Positions 11,345 through 28,522 of a stretch of 64,000 nucleotides of DNA are shown piece after piece; the stretch's first letter is position 1; the number at the start of each line of letters is the position of its first letter. The DNA lies in NCBI RefSeq assembly GCF_024700885.2, contig NZ_CP117016.1. One strand, written 5' to 3'. Origin of the DNA: Escherichia coli (GTDB lineage Bacteria > Pseudomonadota > Gammaproteobacteria > Enterobacterales > Enterobacteriaceae). Both the position numbers and the translations under genes were made by a program. The notes beneath the pieces are model-generated. The model did not search any database. It was not told the DNA's origin and saw nothing but the letters and a program-made list of their open reading frames with translations.

Positions 11345-11349
11345 TTAAT

Positions 11350-13152: not shown

Positions 13153-15956
13153 TGCGGAATATCTCCGGAGAATCTCTGACGCTTCTGTGTCAGATTAAGA
13201 ACAACGGGAGAACCATCATCTTTCAGCAGATAACCAGTACCAAGTTTCACCAGGTACTGACTATCGCCGTAACTTTGCAAACCATACTGACCAGGCGGTG
13301 TTTTTATCCCGGAGCCGACAACTTGTTCATTCCAAGCCTGATTAACCTGCTTATCGAATTGCTCTGCAGACATTCCCCACGGCAAAAGGACATTCCCCAT
13401 TCCGTTATAGTCATGCACGCCACCTGTAGCTACGTTAACAGCCTGTTTCCAGATATCATTGTCAATTTCGCCTGATACCACGCCTTTTTTCGCCATCACA
13501 CCAGCGTAATAATCCTTTGCGATCTCGTATGCCATTGATGCCCCCTGAGCGTCACCAGCAAATGCATCCTTCACCATGTCAGAAAACTCAAGGCGAAGAT
13601 CAGCATCTTTAGGCATCGGAATACCTTTCGCATCATCAGTACCTTTACGAGCCGCCGCGCCAGCAAGAATTGTCTGCGCAGCGGTTTCAGGAGACACGGA
13701 AACATCCGGATTAAACCAGTTTTTTTCTGCCAAAATACCACCAGGCTTATCCATCAGTATCCCGGCAACGGCAGCAGATGGAGCGTTGGCACTGATCTGC
13801 TGTAGTGCTGACATATACACCTGCCCACCACCAGTGCTCTGCCTGATGGTATCGAGATATGCTGCCTGTTGGGAAACTGGAGCATCACGAAAGAAAACAC
13901 CGATCTGATTGGCCTCGTCTTTGGAAAAGAACGTCAGTGGAGTGCCATATGACTTAGCAAGGTCACTGACCTGAGCGGCACGCAAGGCAACGCTCTGTCC
14001 AAAGTTATCCTTATTGCTCATGTCGATAGGCTTTGCCTGTCCGGAGGCAAGAGAGAACTGCACAGGATCCGACTGCCGCTGCTTTATCACCTGATTTGCA
14101 GCCGAAACAACGTTGTCATAAAGAGCTGCTCGTGCCGCATAGCCCTCCCCTGTATCACCAGTATCCGGGCGTAATTGCTCAACATATGCTGTAATGCTGC
14201 TTGTCGGCATGTTGCGGAAAGAGCCTATATACTGTCCAGCGATCTGCGTATTCTTAAACTCGGTATATCGCAGGTTTCCTTCTCTGACTCCATAAGCTGC
14301 AATAAAATCATCCTCACCAGGTGGGTTAGGAAATTCAACGCCACGCATATATGCAGCTGTCGCATCGCGAACCTGGCTGTCAATCATCGTTTTATATTCA
14401 GCCTGCTGCTGCCGACGCAGTTGATCCGCCTGTCGCATAAAACTTGCCTGCGCCTCAGGAGATGCCGCATCGAATGCTGCATTACCGGTATAGCGTTTGG
14501 TGTTGGTTGGAATTGTTGATAAACCAAGTGCTGCACTGACACCAGCAGTTAACTGCTGATCACTGTATGGCTGGCTACCGTTCTCATGATGGATAATGGC
14601 TGCACAAAGCGCCTTCAGGGTATCAGGATTTGATGCATCGAGAGGCTCATCAGCAGAAACGCCAAGTTGTTCGCACACTGCTTTGATATATGACATAGTG
14701 TCATTTTTATCAGTAGGCGGTGCCCAGCGATTAATTATCTCGCTGACTGTATCAATACCCTGCCGCTGATACGACATCAGGTTCCGCCCTAATGCACGAA
14801 TCCCGTGTTCAGGTGTTTCGAATTTAGCAAATCGACCATCATCACCGGTCTGGCCTACCCACGGATTAGTTTTGCTGTATTCGAGATTTCCTGGGTTGTT
14901 ATTACGGATACCGCGAGCACCACCTTTTACGTAATACTGATCCTGCTGTTCGTGAAGTTTCTCAGCATAGGCGGTCGCATTCTCAGGGTTATCGAATATT
15001 CCAAGGTGTTTTCCAGTTTTTTCATACAGAGCAATAGCTTCGTCATCGGAAAGCAATTTTCCATCATCACTGACGGTGGGAATGAGAACTTCTCCAGCTT
15101 CCGTGCCTATAGAAATTGTTCGAACGGTACTGATAGTCCCATCTTCATTTTTGACAGATGGGCGGTTGAAGAGATTAATATTTCCTTGAACAACCATTCC
15201 CTTTGTGGACTTTGGCTCTCCACCATAAGGATTAACAATAGCCCGCTTTGATCCAGCAGCAGTATCGCTTAGCTCGCCATTACTTTGGATAAATGAGATC
15301 GCATTGTTTGCCGACCACTGGGACAATGCTGCATCAGCAACCTTCTCTTTAAACTCGATTTTCTTGGCCTGTATTTGCTCGTCGCTCCAGCCATGTGCAG
15401 CACCGTACTCCTCAATTTGCTGGAAAGTTTGCTTATTAGCCAATATGTATGCGGCATTGTCGCCATACAATGCTGCGGCATTTTTACCATTGTTCAGCAG
15501 CGTCGCCTGAAACTGACCTTCTTCGTAGGCATTAATTTGCCCTATCTCGTGCCGCCCGGCCTGCGTAGTGAACTGAATGCGCTGCTGCTGTGCCTGCTGC
15601 ATGAAAGCATTACGAGTCTGTTCATCCGGCAGCGACATAGCCAGTTGTTCGACCTGAGCATCAAACTGCTGCGTATACTCCTGACCTTTTCCAATAGCAT
15701 TTTTCCCTTTCAGGTTAAGCAATCCTGTTTCAGTATTATTCAGCAGATCACTGCTTATCTGACTGAGGTTAAGAGATGCCTCCTGAGCCAGAGCGATATT
15801 GGCACGCTGTTTTGCCTGCCCCAAAACATCAATTGCCTCTGTCCCTGCCCGAACAAAAGCATCACTAATACCTGGCTGAGAAAACGTCTGCAAGCCTGCT
15901 GACTGAACTCCACGACTCTCAACCTGACGTCCGGATACTGTTGGTACGACTGGCAT
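13149..15956 (-). CDS. internal virion protein with possible cell-wall hydrolase-like segment (935 aa)
   Basis: Position; start set at MPVVPTV where ATG overlaps upstream stop; segment [12 protein letters not shown] could be a muralytic motif (uncertain). Confidence 0.55.
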
Positions 15957-16501
15957 TATAATCCTCCGGGTAATCTGGTTCCTGCTGCTGCCCCGATTGG
16001 CGCAGGGGTGCTTTGAGTAAACGGACTCCACGTCCCACCAAACATCTGGTACGCACCGTATGCCTTCAGAGGCGCAGTGAGCAATGTTGTTGCTGCTCCC
16101 ACATTCCCCTGTTTACGGGCTGAACTGGCTTCTGCTTTATAGTTGGCAGCCTGAACCTGATAACCGTAAGCCTCGCGTTGCGCGTTATTCACCGTCGTCA
16201 GCGAATCAAGAGCGCCAAACTGGGCAGTGTCGCCAAATATATCCAGCGCGTTACCGGTAGATAAATCGGCGCCGGTCGCCCCCATTGTCGCCGCCTGTGT
16301 ACCAAGCCGCTGTCGGGTCTCTCTGCGCCGTTGCTCAGCTTCAGCGTTACCTCTGTTTATTGCATCATTTGCCTGAGCTGTGGCTATATCTGCGTTCGCT
16401 TCTGCAACCTTCGAGGCATACTTTCCCTGTTGGTACTGGGTGTATGCCTGAATGCCACTCATGGCGAGCATTGCGCCACCAGCAATAACCGGATCGCACA
16501 T
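15956..16501 (-). CDS. internal virion protein B-like (gp14-like)
   Basis: Size and position after tail tubular genes; Ala/Gln-rich. Confidence 0.5.
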
Positions 16502-16965
16502 TATTTTCTCTCCATGTGAAATCTGTGGAAATTAAGACCAAGAGCACCATAAGGCGCGGCTTCTTCAAGCCTGAATCCAAGCCAGTGCAGCCATGCTTTG
16601 GCAACATGGTTTCGCTCGTCGACGTAGTTTTCCAGGCGTGGATAAACTGCCAGCATCTGCTGCAATACAGGGCGGCAGTGGCGAAGAAATGTCTTCTGAT
16701 ATTTTTCAATACGGCTGGTTCCTACCAGCCAGGGCGTACCATTGCCACCGATCATTGACGCCGGAGATACGCCAAACATGGTTACCAGTTCTCCGTTCGC
16801 AAATCCTGACCAGGCCATAGTCGCAGTGCGAAGACCAACACGCAGCGCATCTTCGGTAGTCATCAGCGATACCGCATACAGTTCGTCAATATCAGCCTGA
16901 CGAACATCCGGAAAAATCATCTGAAGATGCTCTTCGGTAGCGGGAACAATTCGAACATCGATCAT
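16501..16965 (-). CDS. internal virion protein A-like (gp13-like) / hypothetical
   Basis: Size and position only. Confidence 0.4.
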   Translation of the reverse strand: MIDVRIVPATEEHLQMIFPDVRQADIDELYAVSLMTTEDALRVGLRTATMAWSGFANGELVTMFGVSPASMIGGNGTPWLVGTSRIEKYQKTFLRHCRPVLQQMLAVYPRLENYVDERNHVAKAWLHWLGFRLEEAAPYGALGLNFHRFHMERK

Positions 16966-19436
16966 CAGAATCCCCCAACAGTAAGGCGAGGAATAACGGC
17001 AAGAACAGACAGCGGCAACGGGTCAAGCTGACGGATTCTTACACGTCCGTTTTTGCCCCAGTTACTGTCCAGTTTCACTTCTACTTTTCCGGTAGCGTCA
17101 TCAACAGGATCATCGTAGAACTCGAATTCACGCTGTGGATATTCGTACCATTTACCGCCGGGCGTAGTCGCCCAGATGCCGCGGCTGGCATTCACAACCA
17201 GAGTAACGGATGGGATCACCTGTTTTTTGTCCAGCAGCGTTTCCTGTCCGTTAATGTTGATATCCAGTGTTTCGAATTCAGCAGTTATTGGCAGGCCGAT
17301 GTGCACTACAGCCCCCGGTGATTCCAGCGTGACGGCGCCTCCGGAAACTACTTTCTGTGGTTCCACGTTCGCATCAGAGAGGATGTTTACGGTCTGACCT
17401 TCAAGATGAGACAAGCCGCCAAATGCCCGGCGCGCCATCTGCCAGTTCGTGGTGGCCACATTCCTGAGGGATGGCGGGACGTTCCTGTTAGCACGAACCA
17501 CTACAGCGGTGTTGCTGGTTACAGAAATAATGTCGCAACGTAATTCTTTTGACACTTCATCGCCAGTATCAGGATCAGTTCCGGTATAAGGGAACTGTAG
17601 TTGCGCACCGACATCACTACTGGTGAAGTACGCACCGCCAGAAATACTGATTGTATATTCCGCGCGGTAATCCCATTCGCCAGAACCACCAGTGATGGTC
17701 ATCGTTCTGTCAGACGTATTTCTTCCATCATAGCTAAGGCCAGAATCAACAAAGAAAGCATCTTCATCGCTGGTAAATAAACGGCTGGACAGTCTCTCGA
17801 TGTATCTCACTGTTTGCCCGTTAACGGTTCGGTTAACGACGAAATACACCGCATCTTCATTTCCTTCGCTGATACTGCATGTGCTTTCATATTTTCCGGT
17901 ACTGGATTGTGGTGCCCATGCAAAAACCTGCTGATCACGCAAATAGGTCATCACCAGTAATTTACCGTCATCACGAATGCAGAAGGCGCTGGAGTAAGGG
18001 ACAATAGAGAAGCACCAGTCAACAATGCTGTGCTTCTGAAAAAGATGATTGGCAAGGATGGTCAGGTCGTTCCCCTGATAGCCGTCAACATCGAATGAGT
18101 AGGCCAGATCACGGACAACACTGCCTTTCTCCTGGACGAACAGAGCAATATTCGCCACGGCAATTGGTGGGACATTGCTCGAGCCATTTGATCCCTGAGA
18201 GCTGAATGCAAATGATGATGGGGTTAACACTTTGTTCTGGTCGCCGGTGATGACGTACTCACCTCCGGAAGTCAGTGCCACCAGCGAACCGACATCAATC
18301 AGGTGGCGGATCTCATTAACCTGACGCCCGGCATAGGTGTAGATAATTCTGTCGTTATCCTGCGTAGGATTGCTTTTGCCAAAATCCTTATAATCCCCAG
18401 TACGGCTGGCCCAGATAGTCTGAGGGAACGCAGTCGATGCGGCGAAGTAAAGACGTTGTTGATAATAAACAACAGTGCCAGGATAACCATTAACACTGTT
18501 CCAGGCATATTTAGCCCATTTATAGCTGGCATTATCCTCGCCAACGACCTGCGAAGGGATATAGGAAATCACCTCGGCAGTTGCAGTAGTGCCGTTTACA
18601 GCAGTGATACGGGCAATGCCAAACCCACTGTGCAGATACTCCCACTCAATGCCAGTATTATCATCACCGGATCCGCCCCAGCCATCCCATGATGTGCCTT
18701 CTGTATGCGAAGGGCGCAAAGTACCAGTTTTGCCTGCTGTAACGGCGCGATAGTAGTTACTGTCTGCACGGCGAATATCACCAATCGACGTACTCTTACT
18801 GGTTTCCCATACCGGCACTGAATCCACTGCTGGCTGTTCCAGATAGAACAATTTGCCTACCTGCTCCGCGCCAAAAATAGAGGCGCTTGCCGTTAACGTA
18901 ATTGTCCCGGTGCTGGCGCTGGCATAAACCGTCACTGACTCGTCAATATTGATATCTTCAAATGGCCCGTTCTTCGTTACCACATCAACCAGTTGCCAGT
19001 TGTCATGCGCATAGCGGCGCAACTCTTTCGGCGGGTATGCCGGATGAACCAGCGTAAGCACGTCTGCGCTTTGCGTGAATTTAATTCTGAACAGATCGGC
19101 TTCAGTATATGGCGTGGCAATTTCATAAATAACATTGCTGCTGTTCAGCACCAACGCACCATCTTTGATAACGCGCATGTACTGGTGTCCGAACTCCAGA
19201 GCATAAGTCTGAACCGTCGAGAACTGGAACGGGATCAGGCGGCATTTCCGATTTGGGTATTTGGCGGCACCGACAAAACGCGTACCAGGTCGATTCTCAA
19301 CGCCGCCATACTGCCGCACGATAAAGTTATCGCACTTGCGCAATGCCACCTGGTACTTCGCCATGTCGATACGACCGTACAACGACGGTCCAATCTCACC
19401 ACCGGCAAAGCTGGGCTGGATCCAACTGATAGCCAT
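16965..19436 (-). CDS. tail tubular protein B (T7 gp12-like)
   Basis: 823 aa, immediately after tubular A-like gene; T7-like gene order. Confidence 0.7.
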   Translation of the reverse strand: MAISWIQPSFAGGEIGPSLYGRIDMAKYQVALRKCDNFIVRQYGGVENRPGTRFVGAAKYPNRKCRLIPFQFSTVQTYALEFGHQYMRVIKDGALVLNSSNVIYEIATPYTEADLFRIKFTQSADVLTLVHPAYPPKELRRYAHDNWQLVDVVTKNGPFEDINIDESVTVYASASTGTITLTASASIFGAEQVGKLFYLEQPAVDSVPVWETSKSTSIGDIRRADSNYYRAVTAGKTGTLRPSHTEGTSWDGWGGSGDDNTGIEWEYLHSGFGIARITAVNGTTATAEVISYIPSQVVGEDNASYKWAKYAWNSVNGYPGTVVYYQQRLYFAASTAFPQTIWASRTGDYKDFGKSNPTQDNDRIIYTYAGRQVNEIRHLIDVGSLVALTSGGEYVITGDQNKVLTPSSFAFSSQGSNGSSNVPPIAVANIALFVQEKGSVVRDLAYSFDVDGYQGNDLTILANHLFQKHSIVDWCFSIVPYSSAFCIRDDGKLLVMTYLRDQQVFAWAPQSSTGKYESTCSISEGNEDAVYFVVNRTVNGQTVRYIERLSSRLFTSDEDAFFVDSGLSYDGRNTSDRTMTITGGSGEWDYRAEYTISISGGAYFTSSDVGAQLQFPYTGTDPDTGDEVSKELRCDIISVTSNTAVVVRANRNVPPSLRNVATTNWQMARRAFGGLSHLEGQTVNILSDANVEPQKVVSGGAVTLESPGAVVHIGLPITAEFETLDININGQETLLDKKQVIPSVTLVVNASRGIWATTPGGKWYEYPQREFEFYDDPVDDATGKVEVKLDSNWGKNGRVRIRQLDPLPLSVLAVIPRLTVGGF

Positions 19437-20041
19437 CAGGACAACCTCGCAATGGTAAACTCGTCAACCGGTGGCTGTGGTTCCTGTGATTCATTCTGGC
19501 TATGCGAGCCAGCACTAAGAATCACGCGATTGTACATATTGAGGGCAAACGTACCGAGGTCTGCATTCCCAGTCAGCGCCATGTTAATAGCTGCCGCAAG
19601 ACGCCAGGCCAACGCCTCCATAAAAATGGCATCAAACATGTTCACATCTGTAACACGAGAGACATACTTGAGCCATGCCTGAGGCTGGTCTGTGTAGATC
19701 AACTTTCCTGTTCCGTTGGTGTCTACACCTACTTCGTACTGAACGCGCATTGCTGCTGTTGGATTGCGTACACCAGGAAGCATAATTTCAGTAATGCGCA
19801 GACAATCGGACGGGTACTGATACGCATATTCCCAGTCAGGCGGTAGATTGCTCGTATCTGCAAGCGCCACGCGTTTGGTAGCAAAGTTCCAGTCAAAATC
19901 AGAAAGCACAGCATCACGGCAGGCCTCAAAGTGCAGCGAACATTCCCCCGCTTCCTTGCTGGCTTCCGTCAGGCTGTTAATGCTGCGGCTATTGCCAATA
20001 TTGGACAGCGCACGATTGCAGATCTCTACTACAGAGGCCAT
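19436..20041 (-). CDS. tail tubular protein A (T7 gp11-like)
   Basis: ~200 aa; N-terminus CNRALSNIGNSRSINSLTE resembles gp11 N-terminus. Confidence 0.7.
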   Translation of the reverse strand: MASVVEICNRALSNIGNSRSINSLTEASKEAGECSLHFEACRDAVLSDFDWNFATKRVALADTSNLPPDWEYAYQYPSDCLRITEIMLPGVRNPTAAMRVQYEVGVDTNGTGKLIYTDQPQAWLKYVSRVTDVNMFDAIFMEALAWRLAAAINMALTGNADLGTFALNMYNRVILSAGSHSQNESQEPQPPVDEFTIARLS

Positions 20042-20370
20042 TACTCACCCCCATTGCCGTACAGGGTTTCAGCCGCTGATTTTTCTACATCCCCGGAAAC
20101 AGGAGCGATCGCCATATCAGTGATCTGCAGATCGGCACTGCGATTAACACCATCGTCAGTTTCTCTGGCAGACAGGCCTCGAATAACAGCCTTTGCAGTT
20201 ATCATCACTTCTGTTCCGACGCCCTGAGGTTGCGCCTTCAGCTTATTCAATGTGTCGTTATTAAGAGTGATGCACAGCCCCCACGGGTATTCATCGCGAG
20301 TTCTGGTTTCTCCGCTCTCATCCTGGTAGCTGTCAGTGCCGGTTTTGAGGTTTACGAGTTCCATATACAC
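20041..20370 (-). CDS. hypothetical virion-module protein
   Basis: ORF in structural operon, overlapping stop/start. Confidence 0.45.
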   Translation of the reverse strand: MYMELVNLKTGTDSYQDESGETRTRDEYPWGLCITLNNDTLNKLKAQPQGVGTEVMITAKAVIRGLSARETDDGVNRSADLQITDMAIAPVSGDVEKSAAETLYGNGGE

Positions 20371-20414
20371 TCCTGCAATAAAGGGGCCGAAGCCCCTTGT
20401 CTGATCCGCGAGGC

Positions 20415-20759
20415 TTACACGCCCAGTTCTTTACGCTTATCTGCGATCTTCTCGCGGAGCGTTTCGGCTTTGGCGTTATGGTGTGGCTTCTCGTTAAAGA
20501 GCAATTCGTACTCTTCACGGAGCTTATCCAGTTCACCATCATCTGACACATCGTTGATGATTTTGGTGCTGGTTGCTGCCATTGACACCTTTCCTGCAAC
20601 TTTTGCTTTTGCCTGTCTGGCTGCATCGTTAACAGGTTCCAGTGCGCTACCAGGCTCACCTTCGTATTCGATTTCTGCCCCCTCCGGCCACAGTGTGTTA
20701 TGGATATGAGAGAGGCGCAGAACGCGGTATCTTGGTTTCTCACCTGACATCGATATCAC
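20415..20759 (-). CDS. hypothetical virion-module protein
   Basis: ORF in structural operon. Confidence 0.45.
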   Translation of the reverse strand: MISMSGEKPRYRVLRLSHIHNTLWPEGAEIEYEGEPGSALEPVNDAARQAKAKVAGKVSMAATSTKIINDVSDDGELDKLREEYELLFNEKPHHNAKAETLREKIADKRKELGV

Positions 20760-20760
20760 C

Positions 20761-21198
20761 TTAACCAGTTACTTTTGAGCGGATCGGGTACGGCGTATTG
20801 GCATCAACATCCAGACTGATACCAGCAGTGAATTTGCCATCCGTTAGTGGGCCAGTTGCGACGGAGTAGTTAACACGCAGATATCGCTGAACACCGGCTG
20901 GCACCTTTGCAGAAACAACTCGCTTACCTGCTGTCAGGGTGGCCTTTGCCAGTGCGCCACTATCATAAATAGTGGTCCAAGAGCTGTTATTCTCACTCGT
21001 CTGCAACTGGATGTTTACAGTTGCCTCACCACTTGCCGTGGCGGCTTCGTTAACCAGCGCCCAAAACTCAAGCGGGTAACCCACGTCGATATCGCGACGG
21101 TTTCCATCAATTGGACCGAGATCGATTACGTCAGTAGAAGCCGCGGTATCAGTTACCGCCTGTGCTTCGGAGAACATCAACAGTTTGTCGGTGATCAT
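20761..21198 (-). CDS. hypothetical head-associated protein (possible decoration protein)
   Basis: Position directly downstream of the capsid gene. Confidence 0.4.
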   Translation of the reverse strand: MITDKLLMFSEAQAVTDTAASTDVIDLGPIDGNRRDIDVGYPLEFWALVNEAATASGEATVNIQLQTSENNSSWTTIYDSGALAKATLTAGKRVVSAKVPAGVQRYLRVNYSVATGPLTDGKFTAGISLDVDANTPYPIRSKVTG

Positions 21199-21249
21199 CT
21201 TCTTTCTCCATTAGTGGGTCTGTTACGACCCACAGGTTAATAACAGGCG

Positions 21250-22242
21250 TTACACCACGCGGGCTTCTGTTTCCAGAAGCGCATCAGTTTCACGGATTGG
21301 TACACCACGGAATGACGTCCACCACTCGCCTTCTGTCTCTTTTACGCTGATAGCCAGAGATGTTTTCTCCAGAGACTGCAGATCAAGAGCCTGGCCTACA
21401 GTGCGGTTCATGTAGAACACCGGGCGGCCCATGCCACGGTTTGGAATGCGATGTAGTGCTTTAACCATCAACTTCGCAATATTTGCGGCAGAGGAAGGTT
21501 CTGAAAGATTGCTGACATCGATGTTTGCAATGCGAACAACATAACGCCAGTCACGCAGAGCAAGCCCGTTGTCCCATTTGTAATGGGTACGGTAGCCTTC
21601 GTACTTGCCGCCATTCGCATCTTCCAGTGTCACCTGGCCTTTATCTTCCATCTGGATGCCAGCCTTCTGCCCTTTCGGGAAGATGCCATGCACGGTGTTT
21701 TCACCCCACACCACTAACCAGATTGAGGTGTTATCTGTACCCGTGCCACCAGCATCAATGATGTTCTGAGCATTACCCGCAGACAGGCTGGAATAGCGGG
21801 AGGACAGTCCCATAAACTGCTGAGGGTTAACGCTGGAATCACCATAAAACAACGTCTGCGCCATCTGCTGATTCATCGCTTCAATAAATGCGCGGTCTTC
21901 AGACAGGCGGAACTCGGCGGTATTGCCGTTCAGATCAGCCAGTGACTTATCGACTTCAGCATAGGTTTCCAGCATGCCAACGGAATCGGTTACCTGCACT
22001 GTGGTTGATTTGCTTGGCTGTACGCCATAGTTCAGCAAACGCCAGGTAGCTGAAGGTAAACCAGAACGAATGGTGGTTCGGTGTCCGGTAGGAAGGTTCC
22101 CTTCGACAAAAGGCATATCCTGAAGGATCGGGTTAGTTTGACCGAGAAGCTCGATAATCTTATCGACTTTCCCGTTTGGATCGACGCGCTTACCCCAGTC
22201 AGCCAGCGTTAGCGCAGTTAAGCCTTTAACAGCCATTGTCAT
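21250..22242 (-). CDS. major capsid protein
   Basis: 330 aa, between scaffold and tail genes; strong codon usage. Confidence 0.7.
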   Translation of the reverse strand: MTMAVKGLTALTLADWGKRVDPNGKVDKIIELLGQTNPILQDMPFVEGNLPTGHRTTIRSGLPSATWRLLNYGVQPSKSTTVQVTDSVGMLETYAEVDKSLADLNGNTAEFRLSEDRAFIEAMNQQMAQTLFYGDSSVNPQQFMGLSSRYSSLSAGNAQNIIDAGGTGTDNTSIWLVVWGENTVHGIFPKGQKAGIQMEDKGQVTLEDANGGKYEGYRTHYKWDNGLALRDWRYVVRIANIDVSNLSEPSSAANIAKLMVKALHRIPNRGMGRPVFYMNRTVGQALDLQSLEKTSLAISVKETEGEWWTSFRGVPIRETDALLETEARVV

Positions 22243-22250
22243 TTCCTCTC

Positions 22251-22952
22251 TTATTTGCCATAGAGCACTTCGGCCGCACTACGCTGGCCTTCATTACCAC
22301 CGGTGACCATGCCATCTTCAGACATCGCCTTTCCGATTTTCACGAACGTTTTGACCAGATCAGGGTGATTACCCAGCCCGGTGGTGTTCAGATATTCTTT
22401 GAGTTCAGGTGTCCCGAACTGGTCAAGCGCACGCTGTGCGGCGCTAAGGTTAGAAATCAACTTGTCGCCACCGATTTCTTTGTCAGCTTTTACATCCGCA
22501 GCCCACTGCTCGGTTGTTTTCTGCCAGGCTTCTGCCTGGCGCTGCTGAACACCTGCCAGAATCTTCGGATAAGCATCAACCAGCTTTTGCGCTTGCTCGT
22601 TGGTCAGGTTAAGTTCTCGCGCCACTGGCTCGAATTCCTTCAACGCTTCTGTATCCAGCTCTACGCCTTCGGCAGCATGAAATTCGTACTTCTCCGGCGC
22701 ACCCTCTGGTTTATCGCCGTCCTTTTTTTCACCCTGCTTATCGTTTTCAGATTTTTTTTCATCATCAGGTTTATCGACATCAACAACAGGTTGTGGCTTA
22801 TCACCTTCCTGTTGTGATGGATCACCAGCTGGAGCAGGGTTATCACCTGCATGCGCTGACGGTTCTGACGCAGCCGGAGCTGCCCCACCATCGACTTGTT
22901 GCTCATTGCAAAGACGGCGATACAGCAAACGCTCAAATAAACTCATGATCAC
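22251..22952 (-). CDS. capsid scaffolding protein
   Basis: Acidic, Pro/Glu/Lys-rich low-complexity N-half, located between portal and capsid genes. Confidence 0.6.
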   Translation of the reverse strand: MIMSLFERLLYRRLCNEQQVDGGAAPAASEPSAHAGDNPAPAGDPSQQEGDKPQPVVDVDKPDDEKKSENDKQGEKKDGDKPEGAPEKYEFHAAEGVELDTEALKEFEPVARELNLTNEQAQKLVDAYPKILAGVQQRQAEAWQKTTEQWAADVKADKEIGGDKLISNLSAAQRALDQFGTPELKEYLNTTGLGNHPDLVKTFVKIGKAMSEDGMVTGGNEGQRSAAEVLYGK

Positions 22953-23245
22953 TCCTGTTCACTGGCCTCTTTGGCCATCTTCAAATACTGTTCAGGGCAA
23001 TGCGCCATAACGCGCTGAAACAGTTCCAGCGCCAGATTGCGTTGCCCCTCATTAAATGCCATTGCCATAGCATCCATCGGAGAGATAGCGGAAAACACCC
23101 GGCCTTTCTCCAGCACCGACCAGACAACGCGACGCCCCTGTTCACTGCTCATGACAAAGCGAATGTCATCAATTTCACGCTGTGCCATGTCACGTTGCTT
23201 ACGGGCGTTTTCTTCTTTCAGTTGATCGTCTTCGTAATCTGTCAT
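22949..23245 (-). CDS. hypothetical head-assembly protein
   Basis: Position between portal and scaffold; 4-nt overlaps. Confidence 0.45.
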   Translation of the reverse strand: MTDYEDDQLKEENARKQRDMAQREIDDIRFVMSSEQGRRVVWSVLEKGRVFSAISPMDAMAMAFNEGQRNLALELFQRVMAHCPEQYLKMAKEASEQE

Positions 23246-24921
23246 TGTGATTGCCCACCCTGACCACTAACTGCATTCGCCATAGCTGACAAAACACTCG
23301 GATCCGAAGTTTTAGCTTCGCTTAGCGTCTTGGCACCCTGTGCCGCCGCCATCCCCATCGCCATCATTTGTTGCTGCTGTTGTTGCTGTGCCCGTTGCTG
23401 GCGAGCCTGCTCAACCTGTTCCTGCGGAACAATGACGGTTGGAGACACTCCGGACATATCAGCGAATGCATCGATCGCCTGATCAACGTTGAGTTTGTCG
23501 AGAGCTTCTGGTTTCGCTTGCGCAAGTTGACCAATAAAGTTGACCGTGGATGCCAGACTGGACAGGCCGATAGACTTCTGCGCCTGAGCCATGACGGAAA
23601 TGTATTCGACCTTCAGGGGCATACCTTCCATCGCGTCAGGCGGTGGCGGCAGCATGTTTTTACGCACCATCATCGAGAAAGCGCGGTCAATGAGAGGATT
23701 AAGACATTCGTCGTTCAGACGCTCCAGAACCGGCCCCAACATCAGAAGTTTTTCTTCTTTCATTTCGATCACCGCTTCAACAGGCATCGAGCGGGTATTG
23801 ATGTTCTGCAACATCATGAACAGATCGACAAAGTAGGCGCTGTTAATGATTTGACGAGTGTCCTGAATGTCTGCCACCAAATCTGCTGTACTGGGGTTAA
23901 CCAGATAAGCAGGCCTGAAACCATCCTGACCAGTAATCTGATCGATATACGTGATGTCGCCAGGAAGAAGGGAGGCACGCTGATTCTTGAGGGAAATCGG
24001 AGCAACCATCGGCGGATTGGTGGCTTTATCAATCAACTGCGACTTGCGCTTCTGGAGAAGCTGCAATGCCTTAACAGGTCCAAGCGCCAGCATACCCGGG
24101 CATGATGATCCATAAACATCTTCGCCGTTAACTTCCCAGCGCGGAGCCATAATTGGAAACTCATCGAATCCGGACTCACGCAACAACTTGTCGTTATCGC
24201 CACCAACCTCGTAATAAACCGATTTGAATGGCTTGTTCTTGCTATCCAGCTTCGATGTATCGCGGTCAATGTTCGGGTAAACCGAATGCATCACTTCAAT
24301 CCACTTCTCGTAGGTGCCGCTTTCCCACATGCTTTTTACGGATTCGCTGACGTTATTTAGCCCGAACTCCTGAACAAGCTGACGAACAGTCATAGAGAAC
24401 TTGCGAAAACAGGTGTCAACACTGCCACGAGGTGAGTTAGCCAGGTAGTAACTTCCTATCGGGAATGGCATTGTACGAATGATGTCCTCGTCATCCTCCA
24501 GCACCGCCATTGCGCCAGTGCTGTATGTGCCGAGGCTTCCGTATAACTGCGGCAGCGACTGATAGAGATTCGACTTATTGAACATATCGTTCATGCGGTT
24601 CTGCACCGCCTCAAGCCACAACTTAACAGGGCCATAATCCATCATTTCAGGATCTGGCGTAGCCAGGCGAAACCACGGACGCGCTGGGCTTGTGATGCCT
24701 GACATCATGCCGCTGGCGAGAGTGCGCGCCGCCATAGTCCCGGTCGAATCAATAATGCGTGTATTGCGTCGATCGTTACGGTTGACCTCAGAAGTCAGAA
24801 AGCGGGAACCACGCGGGTTGATGTAATCACTCAACTCGCGCCAGTGCGGCTCGAACGACTGACGCTCGCTTTCAAGTTGTGCGAACTGTTTGTTCAATCG
24901 CTCTTTAGTTGTTTCCGCCAT
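23242..24921 (-). CDS. portal protein (head-to-tail connector)
   Basis: 559 aa; Gln/Ala/Met-rich C-terminal tail as in T7-like portals; first large gene of the head operon. Confidence 0.75.
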   Translation of the reverse strand: MAETTKERLNKQFAQLESERQSFEPHWRELSDYINPRGSRFLTSEVNRNDRRNTRIIDSTGTMAARTLASGMMSGITSPARPWFRLATPDPEMMDYGPVKLWLEAVQNRMNDMFNKSNLYQSLPQLYGSLGTYSTGAMAVLEDDEDIIRTMPFPIGSYYLANSPRGSVDTCFRKFSMTVRQLVQEFGLNNVSESVKSMWESGTYEKWIEVMHSVYPNIDRDTSKLDSKNKPFKSVYYEVGGDNDKLLRESGFDEFPIMAPRWEVNGEDVYGSSCPGMLALGPVKALQLLQKRKSQLIDKATNPPMVAPISLKNQRASLLPGDITYIDQITGQDGFRPAYLVNPSTADLVADIQDTRQIINSAYFVDLFMMLQNINTRSMPVEAVIEMKEEKLLMLGPVLERLNDECLNPLIDRAFSMMVRKNMLPPPPDAMEGMPLKVEYISVMAQAQKSIGLSSLASTVNFIGQLAQAKPEALDKLNVDQAIDAFADMSGVSPTVIVPQEQVEQARQQRAQQQQQQQMMAMGMAAAQGAKTLSEAKTSDPSVLSAMANAVSGQGGQSQ

Positions 24922-24935
24922 TTCAATGACTCCGG

Positions 24936-25142
24936 TTACTGACCAAGCAGCGTTTTACCGCTGGTATTAGCGGTTGATGTGTCGCCCTGAGAACCGGTAA
25001 GCAGCGTAGAACTACGACCAGCAGCAGCGCGACGGCGACGAGTTTCTTCGTCGCGGGCATCAACAACGGCGGCATCCTGCTCCTGTGGTGCTGCCTGAAC
25101 TTCTGGTGTTGCAGGCACTGATGGTGAGCTACCCATGCACAT
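24936..25142 (-). CDS. small hypothetical protein upstream of portal
   Basis: GGAG Shine-Dalgarno; low complexity; weak. Confidence 0.3.
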   Translation of the reverse strand: MCMGSSPSVPATPEVQAAPQEQDAAVVDARDEETRRRRAAAGRSSTLLTGSQGDTSTANTSGKTLLGQ

Positions 25143-25232
25143 ATCAATGACTCCGTACGCAATTAAATTATTACCAATTTAACCACATATGATTTATTTA
25201 TCGTAGATAGTTGACATTTAACGCACAAATTA

Positions 25233-25247
25233 TTACCTTTAAGGTAA
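25233..25247. promoter_or_regulatory. operator TTACC-TTTAA-GGTAA at start of head operon (with AACCACATATGA motif at 25181-25194)
   Basis: Same palindrome family as the immunity-region operators. Confidence 0.5.
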
Positions 25248-25569
25248 CTAAAGAGTTCATTCCGGTTACTAACCTGACTGGCTTGTCGTTAAATTGAACA
25301 GGTGGAGTGAGCTTTTATTTTGAGCAGTACGGCGTATGGCACATGCGCCGATAGCGGTCTGGATACGTTTAAGGGGCACCCTCCCTTGCTCGGGCAAACG
25401 AACCAGGTAGCCGGAATGTGCAAGTCGAGCGGTTTTATTCCGCGCACGGGGATTCACCATCCCGGCTATTCGGTGTGACGCCTCGGAATAGACGAGGGTA
25501 CAACGATGAGAGCATTTATGGAGCTGCGACAAAGTGTGGCGCATTAACAGGCTAAGTGCTCTCAGCGTT

Positions 25570-25646
25570 GTGGCATTAGCTCAGCTGGACAGAGCAACCG
25601 CCTTCTAAGCGGTTGGTCGCAGGTTCGAATCCTGCATGCCACGCCA
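25570..25646 (+). tRNA. tRNA-Arg (anticodon UCU), phage-encoded
   Basis: Perfect 7-bp acceptor stem GTGGCAT/ATGCCAC, D-arm GCTC..GAGC, anticodon loop CTTCTAA, T-loop GGTTCGAATCC, discriminator G and CCA. Confidence 0.9.
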
Positions 25647-25689
25647 GAATCACGCCTAAGGACCGTGATGCCAGAAGTTCCAGGTGCTT

Positions 25690-25732
25690 GGCGGTGATGG
25701 TTTCCCTTGAAGGACTATCACCGCCCTTTTTT
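25690..25732 (+). terminator. rho-independent terminator downstream of tRNA
   Basis: 9-bp stem GGCGGTGAT / ATCACCGCC followed by T-run. Confidence 0.55.
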
Positions 25733-25942
25733 ACAGCAGGACGCCATTGCGATGACTTCATGCTGTAAACCCGTACAGCCACGGAAGGCATAACTCATTG
25801 CTTCCAGTTCGCCCGGTTCGCCGGGCATTTTTTTGGCGTGATACGTCACAATTATGATATCGATGCAGATTACGACATACATGAAAAACATGTCATAGTA
25901 TCTCCTGAGGTTAATCTCGATTCAAAAAGAGGATGATTTATA

Positions 25943-26290
25943 ATGATTAAAATCAATAACGTACGTGGTGCTAACGTTAGCGTCAACGGAGAAGACTTCA
26001 CTGGTCATCATATTACGATTAACAATGGAAAAGTGATCGTTGATGGTGTCGAAAAAAATAGCAATCTTGACGGACAGATTAACGTAACAATTAATGGAAG
26101 CGTGGAAGGCGTTGAGATTGAAAATGGATCAGTGACTGTAAGCGGTGATGCACATTATGTGAAAACTATGTCTGGTGATGTCCATTGTTCCAATGTATTG
26201 GGAAATGTAAACACCATGTCTGGAGATGTAATCTGCGAAACTGTTGGTGGAAACGCCAGCACAATGTCTGGAAATATTATCAAGAAATAA
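25943..26290 (+). CDS. small repeat-rich beta-strand protein (115 aa), moron; possibly bactofilin-like beta-helix
   Basis: Strong Shine-Dalgarno AAGAGGA; internal repeats of V/I-x-G-x-V and TMSGDV motifs; opposite strand to the surrounding operon. Confidence 0.55.
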   Translation: MIKINNVRGANVSVNGEDFTGHHITINNGKVIVDGVEKNSNLDGQINVTINGSVEGVEIENGSVTVSGDAHYVKTMSGDVHCSNVLGNVNTMSGDVICETVGGNASTMSGNIIKK

Positions 26291-26375
26291 TTATTTAAAA
26301 ATAAAGCCCGCCAAATGCGCGCGCTTTGTTTTATCCTCACCAGAGGATATCAACGACATTATCCCCACCAGCGGA

Positions 26376-27851
26376 TTAAGCATAGGGATCGTAATCTGTA
26401 ATGGCCTTGCCTTGCTGGTTCTGCTGACCTGGAATTCGCAGACGCTTCGACACAGGGAACGCAAACGTCAGCAGTAGCGCATCGCCTTTACCCGGCGAAC
26501 GCCCAAGCCGCTCCTTGATATCCTCCTTCGGTTCGATAACGATTTTACCGTCCACGCGAACTTTGTACTCTGCCGCCGACAGGTCGTCTGCAGTTTCCTG
26601 GTCATCCAGCATGCCGCCCAGCCTCAGCCATGTCTTGCATGAGTTGAACATCTCCCCGCGCTTGTTGAGCATCTGAGGGTCAGTTGACGCGCCACCGAAC
26701 GGAACAAGTTGCCATGTGCGCCCCCAGCCGTCACCGATTGACTTCAGGCCAGTACCGTAACCGAAGTCGATGAACACCGCGTCGGCCTGATACTGGTCTT
26801 CAAAGTCAGCGATACGCTTCGCCATAATCAGATCGTCGGTGGTCTTGTTGCCAGTCCACAGCACCTTACTGTGCAGCCCCTGCCGCAGGTATATCACCGC
26901 GTCATCAACGCCGGAGTATGCCGGGTCAACTCCGATTATCACCGGAGCATGTGCCACCTGCGCAGCGGTTACCACCCGTTTCATTGCCTCGTCAGTAAGA
27001 CCGGTAGGGATAAACTGCAATTCAGATGCATCAGGGAATATGCCACGCACACGGATTTTAACGAAGTCGCTGTCTTCCCCGTAGTCATCAACCCATTTCT
27101 GCAACTGCTGTTTGTTAGTGCCTTCCACCGTCCGGCTGTCAATCTGCGCAGTTTTCCAGCGGTGTTTATATTTGCGGAAACATTCTCGGAAACGTCCGGT
27201 ATTACGCGTCGGGTTTCCGAACGCCACCCAGATAATCTCAGTGTCTTCGTCCGTAAGCGCACCCTCGGCAACTTCCCACACCAGATCCGCAATGTTCGAC
27301 GCTTCATCGAATACCACGATGATACGTTTGCGCTCGTTGTGTAGTCCGGCGAACGCCTCAGTATTGTGCTCAGACCAGGGGATTGCGTCAGCTCGCCACC
27401 GCTTGTCGTGCCCAGGATCATTGCTGTACATCGCGGTAGCGGTACAGGTGAACCAGTCTTTCGTGATAGCAAGGTTCGACCACTTGATAATTTCCGGCCA
27501 GGTCTTCGTTCGTAGCTGGTTGTCGGTGTTGGCGGTCACCACGATCTTACAATCCTCGCAAGTGGACATGCCCCAGTTGATCAGCATTGAGATGAATGCG
27601 GATTTACCAATACCGTGACCAGAAGCGCGTGCCAGCATAAGCGGCTGATAGCGCGTCTCTGGATTCTGCAGGTGATCACGTATCTCTCGGAACGCATCAG
27701 CCTGCCACTGACGTGGGCCGGTGGCATGTGCCAGTTCAGTCCCCTCTTCCCCCCACGGGAACGCATAGAGGGCATAGCCAAGCGGATCGTGAGTGAACCC
27801 TGCAATATCCTCGATCAACTGCTCTTCAGGAGATAACGCTGTATCTGTCAC
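26376..27851 (-). CDS. terminase large subunit
   Basis: Walker A-like SGHGIGKS; ~490 aa; followed by the portal gene. Confidence 0.85.
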   Translation of the reverse strand: MTDTALSPEEQLIEDIAGFTHDPLGYALYAFPWGEEGTELAHATGPRQWQADAFREIRDHLQNPETRYQPLMLARASGHGIGKSAFISMLINWGMSTCEDCKIVVTANTDNQLRTKTWPEIIKWSNLAITKDWFTCTATAMYSNDPGHDKRWRADAIPWSEHNTEAFAGLHNERKRIIVVFDEASNIADLVWEVAEGALTDEDTEIIWVAFGNPTRNTGRFRECFRKYKHRWKTAQIDSRTVEGTNKQQLQKWVDDYGEDSDFVKIRVRGIFPDASELQFIPTGLTDEAMKRVVTAAQVAHAPVIIGVDPAYSGVDDAVIYLRQGLHSKVLWTGNKTTDDLIMAKRIADFEDQYQADAVFIDFGYGTGLKSIGDGWGRTWQLVPFGGASTDPQMLNKRGEMFNSCKTWLRLGGMLDDQETADDLSAAEYKVRVDGKIVIEPKEDIKERLGRSPGKGDALLLTFAFPVSKRLRIPGQQNQQGKAITDYDPYA

Positions 27852-28522
27852 TGATTACCATCCTGACGTTCTTTGAGTCGCTTCCTGGCTGCTGCTATGC
27901 GATCAGCAATTGTCACATTCACATTAACATCCAGACGTTCTTTGAACGCGTTGACATCAACATGCTTACCAATCAGCTCAAGGTTCTTCACCTTGTCAGG
28001 CCATTTAATTTTTTTGAGGATTGTCTCTATCGAATCCTCGTTCATGTTCATGATGGTCGATGACAGATCAAAGCCACTAAGCGTAGTGCGCCAGATTTTC
28101 GGCCACTCGCGGATTGGCTTAAGGCTCCCATCGTCGTTGAGGATGTCGATCACATCCATCTGGTCGATCTCCACCAGGCGCATAAGAACGTAATCGGCAC
28201 TGACGCGCATTCGTTTGTTGCGCTCCTCCATCAGCTCGGCAATCCGTTTTTGAATGCGTTCATCGCGCATCATGACACTGGCTTTAACTGCCGCTGTATT
28301 TGGGGAGAATCCTGCGTTAATCGCTGCCTGAGTCTGGTTTTCAGGCGTTTTGATGTATGACTGGCAATAAGCCTCCTGCATTGCTGTTAGTGGCTTAAAT
28401 TGCGTTGATTTGCGTTTATAGGTTTTAGGTTCAGCAGGCATCATAACCACCGTGGTAATAGTTACCGTTTTGGTAATAGTACCATGCAAAACAAAGCCGC
28501 CATAGTTGGCGGCAGTATTCAA
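27848..28522 (-). CDS. terminase small subunit
   Basis: Overlaps terminase large start by 4 nt; start may instead be the MMPAEPK Met at 28444. Confidence 0.6.
   Translation of the reverse strand: MNTAANYGGFVLHGTITKTVTITTVVMMPAEPKTYKRKSTQFKPLTAMQEAYCQSYIKTPENQTQAAINAGFSPNTAAVKASVMMRDERIQKRIAELMEERNKRMRVSADYVLMRLVEIDQMDVIDILNDDGSLKPIREWPKIWRTTLSGFDLSSTIMNMNEDSIETILKKIKWPDKVKNLELIGKHVDVNAFKERLDVNVNVTIADRIAAARKRLKERQDGNQ

Follow-up and report, generated by a model that had tools for sequence, protein, structure and literature searches.

A widespread family of pseudoknotted phage RNAs and its setting in an epsilon15-like prophage of Escherichia coli

Why does a plus-strand island with a tRNA gene interrupt the minus-strand packaging and head genes of a prophage, and what is encoded in the stretch upstream of that tRNA? 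The question was addressed in 64,000 nucleotides (nt) of Escherichia coli DNA (assembly GCF_024700885.2, contig NZ_CP117016.1), here called the window, which contains a prophage of the epsilon15/phiV10 type, a podovirus of the genus Uetakevirus. Positions 25100-26400 of the window were 98.2% identical to phage TL-2011b, about 97.5% identical to phiV10 over the shared parts, and 100% identical to E. coli strain MLI114. An earlier note on the window, made from the sequence alone, had described a moron island that interrupts the packaging and head operon, and a plus-strand insertion between the portal and terminase genes was indeed confirmed. We show that its main feature is an RNA of about 170 nt (25330-25497, plus strand), here called the core, which belongs to a family of pseudoknotted phage RNAs.

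On the plus strand, the island contained in order a promoter with an operator, the core RNA, a long hairpin (P7), a gene for tRNA-Arg, a conserved hairpin, a terminator (T1), a conserved segment, a second terminator (T2), and an accessory gene. The RNA part of this arrangement recurred module by module in the early-left leaders of lambdoid phages that lack the N protein. The best explanation is that positions 25211-26332 represent a single repressor-controlled early transcription unit rather than a loose set of morons. The exchangeable, AT-rich gene slot is as expected for a moron, whereas the RNA modules probably belong to one unit under repressor control.

The core RNA and its distribution

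It had been remarked in passing that the roughly 300 nt upstream of the tRNA gene are G+C-rich and structured without being a second tRNA. The remark was right: the G+C content was 59.5%, as compared to 33% in the preceding promoter region, pairing was beyond chance, and a second tRNA or a tmRNA was ruled out, as none was called there by ARAGORN or Rfam. The conserved RNA family itself had, however, been missed. To define it, positions 25260-25570 were used as the query in a distant BLAST search, and ten of the phage matches were aligned. The alignment contained long invariant blocks, and between them variable hairpins with clear compensatory changes. A scan of IMG/VR with the invariant 19-nt block GGTAGCCGGAATGTGCAAG identified at least 120 loci, representing 106 distinct cores among the matches listed.

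The alignments, the pair counts, and a covariance model supported a fold with six helices and two pseudoknots, all on the plus strand. P1 is a hairpin, CGGCGTATGGCACATGCGCCG (25330-25350), and P2 is a helix around a variable hairpin with a YUCCYUU loop. The invariant block GGTAGCCGGAATGTGCAAG (25406-25424) is referred to as the hub. P3 is a variable hairpin, and P4 is a stem of 4 base pairs (bp; 25449-25452 with 25460-25463) with the loop TTCACCA, or YUCACCA in the family; both are closed by a helix of 3 bp. The last hairpin, P6, is located at 25481-25497. In pseudoknot 1, the loop of P1 (GCACAT, 25339-25344) pairs with the hub (ATGTGC, 25416-25421), and in pseudoknot 2, the loop of P4 (CACC, 25455-25458) pairs with GGTG (25472-25475).

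The structure, with 35 pairs, was scored on an alignment of 49 sequences less than 90% alike. Standard pairing was observed in 96.8% of the cells, and changes on both sides were observed at 15 of the 35 pairs, amounting to 100 cells. None of 500 shuffles matched the real alignment on any measure, and control structures slid by 1 to 3 columns gave only 27% to 46% pairing. A G-C pair in P1 was replaced by A-U (19 versus 28 sequences), a C-G pair in P2 by U-A, and swaps occurred at all five pairs of P6. The CACC:GGUG pairing of pseudoknot 2 was replaced by AACC:GGUU in the mEp460 group. Furthermore, G-U pairs were frequent, with 17 at a single position in P1, and since these would be A-C on the opposite strand, the RNA is read from the plus strand. 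We conclude that 25330-25497 is a real, constrained plus-strand RNA.

Pseudoknot 1 is invariant and therefore unproven by covariation; its three natural variants included two that were wobble-compatible and one with an A-C mismatch. In the set anchored on GGTAGCCGGAATGTGCAAG, the search pattern itself accounted in part for the invariant hub. Members were therefore fetched again with an independent anchor in the P6 region, and the hub segment CCGGAATGTGCAAG was retained in 101 of the 104 unique members obtained in this way. RNAalifold suggested a long-range pairing of the P1 stem with the flanks of the hub. This alternative was rejected because it leaves the G-C to A-U and G-C to C-G swaps in P1 unexplained, and only its GCACAU:AUGUGC part was kept, as pseudoknot 1. 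A covariance model built from the alignment gave a single match in the window (25328-25509, 138 bits, E 3e-43), and nhmmer likewise gave only one match.

A search with the core only identified 2,458 places in 1,830 of 5,426 complete E. coli genomes, or about a third, with 550 of the places located on plasmids of the P1 type. No annotated feature was present in RefSeq under any of the listed chromosomal E. coli copies. The BLAST search matched 84 phage records, almost all of which were unannotated over the match. These included phiV10-like phages, lambda-like phages (cdtI, mEp460, 2H10, 1720a-02, and phages converting to Shiga toxin (Stx) types Stx2c and Stx2a), phages P1 and P7 and their relatives, as well as phages of Klebsiella, Salmonella, and Enterobacter and two Stenotrophomonas phages. 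In a set with one genome per species, 24 true copies were identified, all in Enterobacterales except for two on short, probably mis-binned metagenome contigs. Another 22 of the 46 exact 17-mer matches in genomes (Bacteroidales, Chloroflexi, an archaeon, and others) were dismissed as chance, as they failed the hidden Markov model (HMM) and their number was about that expected for a 17-mer in 298 Gb.

A search of window positions 24800-26600 against the 4,227 models of Rfam 15 (E<=1) yielded only the tRNA and two sub-threshold chance matches elsewhere, with none to the core. In 14 related loci, the Rfam gathering scores were reached only by tRNAs, and by C4 and IsrK elsewhere in the loci, and by neither the core, hairpin P7, nor the tRNA-like modules described below. 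Known families such as C4, IsrK, put, riboswitches, ribozymes, HEARO, ROOL, GOLLD, YrlA, and others were dismissed for the core on these grounds. The hub sequence had no match in the full text of 8 million papers, and no description of the element was found in the literature on ban/trnI of phage P1, N-less lambdoids, and structured phage RNAs. The core thus represents a new, widespread, and unannotated structured RNA family outside Rfam.

Each phage region examined contained one copy. It was also noted that single genomes may hold 3 or 4 cores on different contigs or prophages, as in Phytobacter ursingii (L175, L176, and L177), and that the core occurred at up to 4 places in E. coli. Two natural deletions were identified. 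In epsilon15 (L004, 1549-1660), just P1 and the beginning of P2 remain ahead of T2 and the accessory gene, whereas an internal loss in L196 (2408-2478) has fused TAGCGGT to ACGGTGTGAC. Because these variants exist, the core must be dispensable for at least some viable uetakeviruses.

Promoters, terminators, and modules around the core

As read from the sequence, a candidate early promoter on the plus strand upstream of the core consists of TTGACA (25211-25216), a 17-nt spacer, and TACCTT (25234-25239), and is overlapped by the palindrome TTACCTTTAAGGTAA (25233-25247), a putative operator. Both promoter and palindrome recurred upstream of the core in 5 related loci (L009, L034, L077, L114, and L121), and the homologous site of epsilon15 carries the annotation of a repressor binding site. 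A second candidate promoter (TTGAAC, 16 nt, TATTTT; 25294-25321, plus strand) has a predicted start at about 25328, at P1, and is considered weak because its -35 hexamer was not kept in all close relatives. Strong promoters in other members (L130, L043, L104, and L013) set the start 7 to 14 nt before P1, and good sigma-70 promoters, often overlapped by operator palindromes, were located 0 to 97 nt upstream of P1 across the members.

The core was observed in two main settings. In type A, found in the uetakeviruses, the minus-strand portal and gp3 genes are followed by the promoter and operator, the core, the RNA modules, the terminators, one variable plus-strand gene, a hairpin, and the minus-strand gene for the large terminase subunit (terL). 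In type B, found in lambda-like phages and Stenotrophomonas phage BUCT708, a gene for a CI-type repressor is followed by a short terminator, a promoter bearing an operator, and the core. Here, the core was located 110 to 170 nt past the repressor gene, on the same strand and divergent from the cro and cII-like genes. Members of type B include mEp460, cdtI, the Stx2c phages, Stx2a_WGPS2, 1720a-02, and BUCT708. The repressors matched phrog_4 (E 1e-52 to 1e-61), with 5e-52 and 1e-60 for two S24-type repressors. Downstream of the core, 400 to 780 nt were gene-free, and then followed the early-left genes (for ParB-like proteins, YfdQ, a 5'-nucleotidase, and unknown proteins). The core in type B is located at the place of nutL/N or putL. 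No N-like family was identified among the 9 neighboring proteins tested, and in Stx2a_WGPS2 the stretch from the core to the early genes yielded no further plus-strand promoter.

In a third setting, that of phages P1 and P7, the core belonged to the C1-controlled ban operon, with a gene for tRNA-Ile 15 nt ahead of it and ban immediately after it. We also noted that mEp460 (L005, minus strand) contained a C4 antisense RNA (83.6 bits, 206-293) and IsrK (67 bits, 318-394) side by side. This pair was located in the rightward operon adjoining the antirepressor gene, and a module resembling immI of phage P1 is thus present in the same phages as a core at the leftward promoter.

The two terminator hairpins that the earlier note had placed after the tRNA gene were recovered as hairpins with U-runs at 25690-25725 and 25811-25826, the stems of which were kept by compensatory changes in relatives. 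The predicted terminator T1 (25690-25732, plus strand) consists of a 14-bp stem, GGCGGTGATGGTTT/AGGACTATCACCGCC, followed by CTTTTTT, and the predicted terminator T2 (25811-25834, plus strand) consists of GCCCGG-TTCG-CCGGGC followed by ATTTTTTT. Both thus have a G+C-rich hairpin directly before a U-run, as in intrinsic terminators, and are predicted to be active. T2 was present in 18 of the 19 uetakevirus-type loci, and the lambdoid terminator of the mEp460/Stx group, GGCGGTACCAG...CTGGTACCGCTC-TTTTTACA (-21 kcal/mol), was homologous to T1. The scan for terminators was energy-based with a reverse-strand control; a strict scan for perfect stems misses most of the lambdoid terminators. A plus-strand terminator was predicted in the interval from the core to the first gene downstream in 18 of the 19 loci of type A and 32 of the 45 of type B, as compared to 2 of 19 and 12 of 45 in the control. 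AAGGTGA and the start codon (ATG) of the variable gene came within a few bases after the U-run of T2 in four relatives (phiV10, the Klebsiella phage, Tyrion, and PAT1), and because the U-run abuts the ribosome-binding site and start codon there is no room for a separate promoter of the accessory gene in these phages.

The segment between the terminators (25733-25810, plus strand; fold z-score -2.06) contained the block CGCCATTGCGATGAC (25742-25756), which in the alignment was invariant across the uetakeviruses of E. coli, Klebsiella, Salmonella, and Enterobacter and more conserved than its surroundings. The earlier note had proposed an ACAGCA...TGCTGT hairpin and a small RNA delimited by the terminators in this segment. 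The repeat exists (25733-25766, 6 bp with a 22-nt loop), but it is not part of the minimum free energy (MFE) fold, and in two of five related phages, Tyrion and PAT1, a G to C change disrupts the pairing. The proposal of a small RNA was not borne out either, as no promoter of its own was found and the hairpin was not conserved, although the sequence of the segment was; this conservation suggests that the segment may matter.

Between P6 and the tRNA gene, the MFE fold contained the long hairpin P7 (25501-25569, plus strand), with the 5' arm CAACGATGAGAGCA (25501-25514), a variable insert, and the 3' arm TGCTCTCAGCGTT (25557-25569). It was present after P6 in nearly all members, with a 5' arm of YAAC, 3 to 5 nt, and RAGAGCR, a 3' arm of GYGCTCT...GTTG, and an insert of 40 to 130 nt. 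Variants of the two arms were matched across the family, such as CAACCAAAAGAGCGCT with AGTGCTCTTTTTGTTG and TAACAGGTAAGAGCA with TGCTCTTTCCGTTG. In the window, the 3' arm stopped exactly at the first base of a gene for tRNA-Arg(UCU), and the same was true of 19 further unique loci, which included lambda-like ones. The gene in the window (25570-25646, plus strand), whose anticodon UCU reads AGA, had been recognized as a canonical tRNA in the earlier note; ARAGORN called it with the anticodon tct, Rfam/Infernal assigned it to RF00005 (71.7 bits against a gathering score of 29, E 3e-15), and it is annotated as such in relatives. Canonical tRNAs were identified downstream of the core in 20 of 108 unique loci, and every one was Arg(UCU).

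In other loci, the 3' arm of P7 ended at modules that start with GTGGTGAATGCGC and end with CCACCACAAC. They can be drawn in cloverleaf form, with arms like the acceptor, D, and T arms of a tRNA and a long replacement for the anticodon arm. However, neither ARAGORN nor Rfam called a tRNA in them, and their fold energy was no better than that of shuffles, for which reasons "tRNA-like" is used as a description only. In Stx2a_WGPS2 (L180, 3299-3431), and similarly in L005, L073, L116, and others, the modules begin with GTGGTGAATGCGCAGGCTGATGCGC and end with GCCGGAGATCAGCACCGG..CCACAAC. Some of the P7 inserts held canonical-looking T-arms (GGTTCGATTCC).

The tRNA gene in the window is followed by the hairpin ATCACG-CCTAAGGAC-CGTGAT with a loop of nine nt (25649-25669, plus strand), which in the alignment of relatives was invariant among the uetakeviruses of E. 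coli, Klebsiella, Salmonella, and Enterobacter and more conserved than its surroundings. A related motif, AATCACG...CGTGRTA, was identified in the leaders of lambdoid and Stenotrophomonas phages. We noted that an AATCACG...CGTGGTA hairpin and a TGCTGTGTGTAGTCTTGG motif precede the terminator in the leaders of Stenotrophomonas and other lambda-like phages.

In four lambda-like members (L031, L071, L083, and L120), P7 was replaced by a hairpin, AGCGCCC...GGACGCT, located about 20 to 60 nt after P6 and followed by GCTCTTTAACAA, which is an exact match to the boxA consensus of ribosomal operons. The match hints at a use of Nus factors by some members. A boxA-like sequence, TGCTCTTT, was also present in the 3' arm of P7 in some members, where it is base-paired within P7. 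A boxA as a general feature of this arm was rejected because the sequence was not conserved across the family, the arm containing GCGCTCCC in the Stenotrophomonas phages and GTCATCTTC in L116.

Possible roles of the core

What does the core do? We tentatively favor, at slightly less than even confidence, a leader RNA that acts in cis and enables RNA polymerase to pass the terminators downstream. Transcription would start at the operator-bearing, repressor-controlled promoter, so that the core is made first. The 170-nt core would fold on the nascent transcript and engage the transcribing RNA polymerase, possibly together with host elongation factors, and the engaged polymerase would become resistant to the terminators downstream. 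Only transcripts begun at the promoter of the core would then reach the genes beyond, which are the whole early-left operon in the lambda-like relatives, and the tRNA-distal segment and the accessory gene in the prophage studied here. The upstream promoter of the core would have to be the sole one serving the downstream genes, the predicted terminators would have to be functional, and the core itself would have to possess antitermination activity. Antitermination was chosen as the best explanation because a constrained fold is made first from a repressor-controlled early promoter, a strong terminator is usually located before the genes, and neither an N-like protein among the neighbors tested nor another promoter was found, which is the logic of put in phage HK022.

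The put RNAs suppress termination in cis, in a manner that depends on the β' zinc-binding domain of RNA polymerase. Like them, the core is an early-operon leader RNA of lambda-like phages without N, located after a repressor-controlled promoter and before terminators, and is proposed to act in cis on the polymerase. The lambdoid members share this location, and the podovirus in the window has an analogous operator-controlled promoter, followed by T1 and T2. In contrast to put, the core spans about 170 nt, with two pseudoknots and six helices (P1, P2 with its inner hairpin, P3, P4, the closing helix, and P6), whereas the put RNA of HK022 has two stem-loops in about 65 to 75 nt, and the putL of HK639 is annotated as 126 nt. 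The core was furthermore located next to tRNAs and in Uetakevirus podoviruses and phage P1, and its activity is putative, while putL and putR of HK022 and putL of HK639 are antiterminator RNAs (King, Weisberg, and colleagues), for which a structure is available (PMC9378689). Homology was rejected, as BLAST of the element against HK639 gave nothing at putL. Moreover, the HMM of the core gave no match to HK022 or HK639 at E<=10, and the covariance model gave none to HK639 and only a 5-bit noise match in a tail gene of HK022.

The second comparison is with the N/nut system of lambda and the boxA-Nus leaders of ribosomal RNA (rRNA) operons. Like these, the core leader is long and untranslated and would need protection against Rho; it occupies the early-left position, and boxA-like sequences were present in a subset of members, examples being GCTCTTTAACAA immediately past the core of L031 and L120 and TGCTCTTT in the 3' arm of P7. 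However, no N-like protein was identified among the tested neighbors, there was no boxB, and the boxA-like sequence was not conserved throughout the family. The core leaders thus do not display the single-stranded boxA (consensus GCUCUUUA) beside a boxB hairpin, with N encoded downstream, that defines nut.

Several observations weigh against antitermination. The core has no similarity in sequence or structure to putL and putR of HK022 or putL of HK639, and is more than twice their size. There is one core per phage region, as compared to a put site in each early operon of HK022. The leaders of 13 of the 45 lambdoid-type loci contained no predicted intrinsic terminator, and the setting in phages P1 and P7 was likewise without obvious terminators. 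Cleavage by RNase P at the following tRNA or tRNA-like module would cut the tether to RNA polymerase. In the uetakevirus island, a constitutive antiterminator placed before terminators that can be reached solely from its own promoter seems pointless. Finally, epsilon15 contained only a remnant of P1 and yet kept T2 and the gene, which makes the RNA dispensable there.

Alternatively, the core and P7 could form a stable, trans-acting noncoding RNA of about 245 nt, which would start at P1, obtain its 3' end from RNase P at the tRNA or tRNA-like module, and be protected by P7, the terminators merely ending an RNA operon. We regard this as the main alternative, though less probable than antitermination. 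Such an RNA could, for example, bind a host or phage factor early in infection and thereby serve in host take-over, in countering defenses that target tRNAs, or in a tRNA-related function. It would explain why the 3' arm of P7 runs up to the very first base of the tRNA in the window and at further loci, and elsewhere stops at modules with acceptor-, D-, and T-like arms, why every canonical tRNA after the core is Arg(UCU), and why 15 nt separate the core of phages P1 and P7 from the tRNA ahead of it. With its two pseudoknots and invariant hub, the compact fold is reminiscent of RNAs that bind a defined partner, and the RNA array of the uetakeviruses is closed by strong predicted terminators. 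However, the tRNA-like modules went uncalled by ARAGORN and Rfam and folded no better than shuffles, and a trans-acting role leaves unexplained why, in N-less lambdoids, transcription from the early-left promoter so consistently begins with the core and meets a terminator ahead of the genes, although a coincidence of early expression is possible. Put more broadly, and with the same reservation, the core and P7 could represent a new class of compact, pseudoknotted phage RNA that is freed by the tRNA-processing machinery and, by binding a conserved host machine, reprograms the cell when lytic growth begins; it could target RNA polymerase, the apparatus of translation or of tRNAs, or a defense nuclease directed against tRNAs.

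Precedents for ornate RNAs near tRNAs exist. ROOL (about 580 nt) and GOLLD (about 800 nt) are large RNAs of phages and prophages, often located by tRNA genes, in Firmicutes or in rumen and lake organisms. The core is similarly phage-borne, elaborately folded, frequently located beside tRNA genes, and found by comparative analysis, which would be in line with a trans-acting RNA. It differs in its much smaller size of 170 nt, its presence in Enterobacterales, and its fixed position at the start of the early transcript, and gave no Rfam match to either family. The species 1 and 2 RNAs of phage T4 are stable RNAs inside a cluster of phage tRNAs, and MALAT1 is released by the tRNA-like mascRNA, an example of tRNA-punctuated processing. 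The core would share with them that a structured RNA other than a tRNA is co-transcribed with a tRNA and has its 3' end at an RNase P site; we know of no homology between the core and either of them.

Could the core instead be a sensor, riboswitch-like or responsive to a protein or tRNA, that decides according to the state of the cell whether transcription stops at T1 and T2? The position in the 5' leader, the complex conserved fold, and the terminators downstream are consistent with this, and the retention of terminators behind an element linked to the promoter would make sense for a conditional device. We nevertheless regard it as unlikely, as 190 to 330 nt, including the tRNA, separate the core from the terminators, the stems of the terminators did not show any alternative pairing with the core, no Rfam riboswitch was matched, and the gene context suggests no ligand and differs among uetakeviruses, lambdoids, and phage P1. 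Equally improbable is a core that has no function of its own and merely aids the processing or stability of the tRNA and neighboring RNAs, as a leader that would protect the precursor or guide RNase E, P, or III. The core is co-transcribed with the tRNA, the long duplex of P7 adjoins the latter, and an RNase III site is annotated in the homologous region of epsilon15, but 88 of the 108 unique members lacked a canonical tRNA downstream, and such a leader has no need for two pseudoknots and a 14-nt hub that is invariant from Escherichia to Stenotrophomonas phages. It is highly improbable that the conservation reflects a protein-coding gene or a site in the DNA, such as an operator array, an origin, or a recombination or packaging site. 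Short hypothetical genes are annotated over the core in some records (mEp460 gp37 and one in Tyrion), and the core of the uetakeviruses is located between the terminase and portal genes. However, these open reading frames (ORFs) are short, on varying strands, and without Pfam matches, the position of the core is wholly different among the phage types, and both explanations are contradicted by the compensatory changes in the helices and by the many G-U pairs that fit one strand only.

The tRNA, the accessory gene slot, and flanking genes

Genes for tRNA-Arg(UCU) resembling argU are carried by Stx phages and other temperate phages, and the tRNA in the window is ordinary in comparison; what is new is its constant upstream partner. 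In ORF-based counts, AGA was about five times more frequent in the prophage (about 77 of some 11,900 codons) than in the flanking host genes (about 10 of some 8,000 codons). The tRNA is thus well supported as a supplier of the rare AGA decoder for the AGA-rich tail and early genes, independently of the role of the core RNA. We also noted that the codon was unevenly distributed inside the prophage (4819-20743 compared with 20761-28450): the tail and injection region and some of the early genes contained 7 to 36 per 1,000 codons, with the highest values at 29 to 36, and the head, portal, and terminase genes contained none. This suggests modules of differing origin or expression needs.

The earlier note had also reported a plus-strand ORF for a repeat-containing protein of 115 amino acids (25943-26290). 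It encodes a real, conserved protein that matched phrog_3163 (E 9e-37) and had 1,101 homologs in diverse bacteria. The family extends well beyond phages, with proteins of about 115 amino acids in Shewanella, Acinetobacter, Fusobacterium, and many metagenomes, and two nearly invariant cysteines were noted within its three TMSGDVxC repeats. The AlphaFold2 model was an all-β solenoid with a predicted local distance difference test (pLDDT) score of 86.8, and the protein is accordingly modeled as a member of a widespread β-solenoid family. No Pfam family was matched at E<=0.1, and Foldseek identified no significant neighbor in the PDB (best E 0.74). An identity as a bactofilin or adhesin was rejected, as there was no match to PF04519 and the bactofilin 6ria gave E 5.1 and a template modeling (TM) score of 0.24.

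The slot that this gene occupies after the terminators is exchangeable among relatives, where it contained genes for DUF2829, Sf6 gp66-like proteins, and others. The ORF in the window was AT-rich, with a G+C content of 38.8% as compared to 51% to 55% in the neighbors, and is followed by a probable terminator. An AT-rich insert of about 105 nt (35% G+C) was present ahead of it in the window and absent from phiV10 and other relatives. The insert contained a weak promoter-like site (TTACGA, 18 nt, CATAGT; 25870-25899, plus strand), which was read from the sequence and was not reported by the consensus scan. A hairpin between the ORF and terL (26298-26332, fold z-score -4.3), preceded by an A-run and followed by a T-run (AAAAATAAAGCCCGCC...GCGCGCTTTGTTTT), is probably a two-way terminator. 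Its counterpart in phiV10 is annotated as a rho-independent terminator, and relatives contained the equivalent AGCCCGCC...GCGGGCT-TTTT.

The island is flanked by minus-strand genes. On one side are terL (26376-27851, as annotated in phiV10 and TL-2011b) and the gene for the small terminase subunit (27848-28522). On the other side is the portal gene (23242-24921; Pfam Head-tail_con, E 1e-186), with an ORF of 68 amino acids, a homolog of epsilon15 gp3, just upstream of it (24936-25142). This small protein had no Pfam family, is rich in alanine, glutamine, and arginine, and was kept in every uetakevirus locus examined.

Many lambda-like phages, including those that convert to Shiga toxin production, lack an N protein to carry them past the early terminators. 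To our knowledge, the put RNA of HK022 is the sole characterized alternative to N in such phages. The core is a concrete and sharply bounded RNA at exactly this position in the leader, and is the best candidate for the missing antitermination device of the N-less lambda-like phages. Should it instead act as a free-standing RNA, phages would have a novel type of effector RNA tied to tRNA processing, an RNA counterpart of their small early take-over proteins that is carried by a third of the E. coli genomes. The definition of the core family would also fill an annotation gap in genomes that have been very heavily studied.

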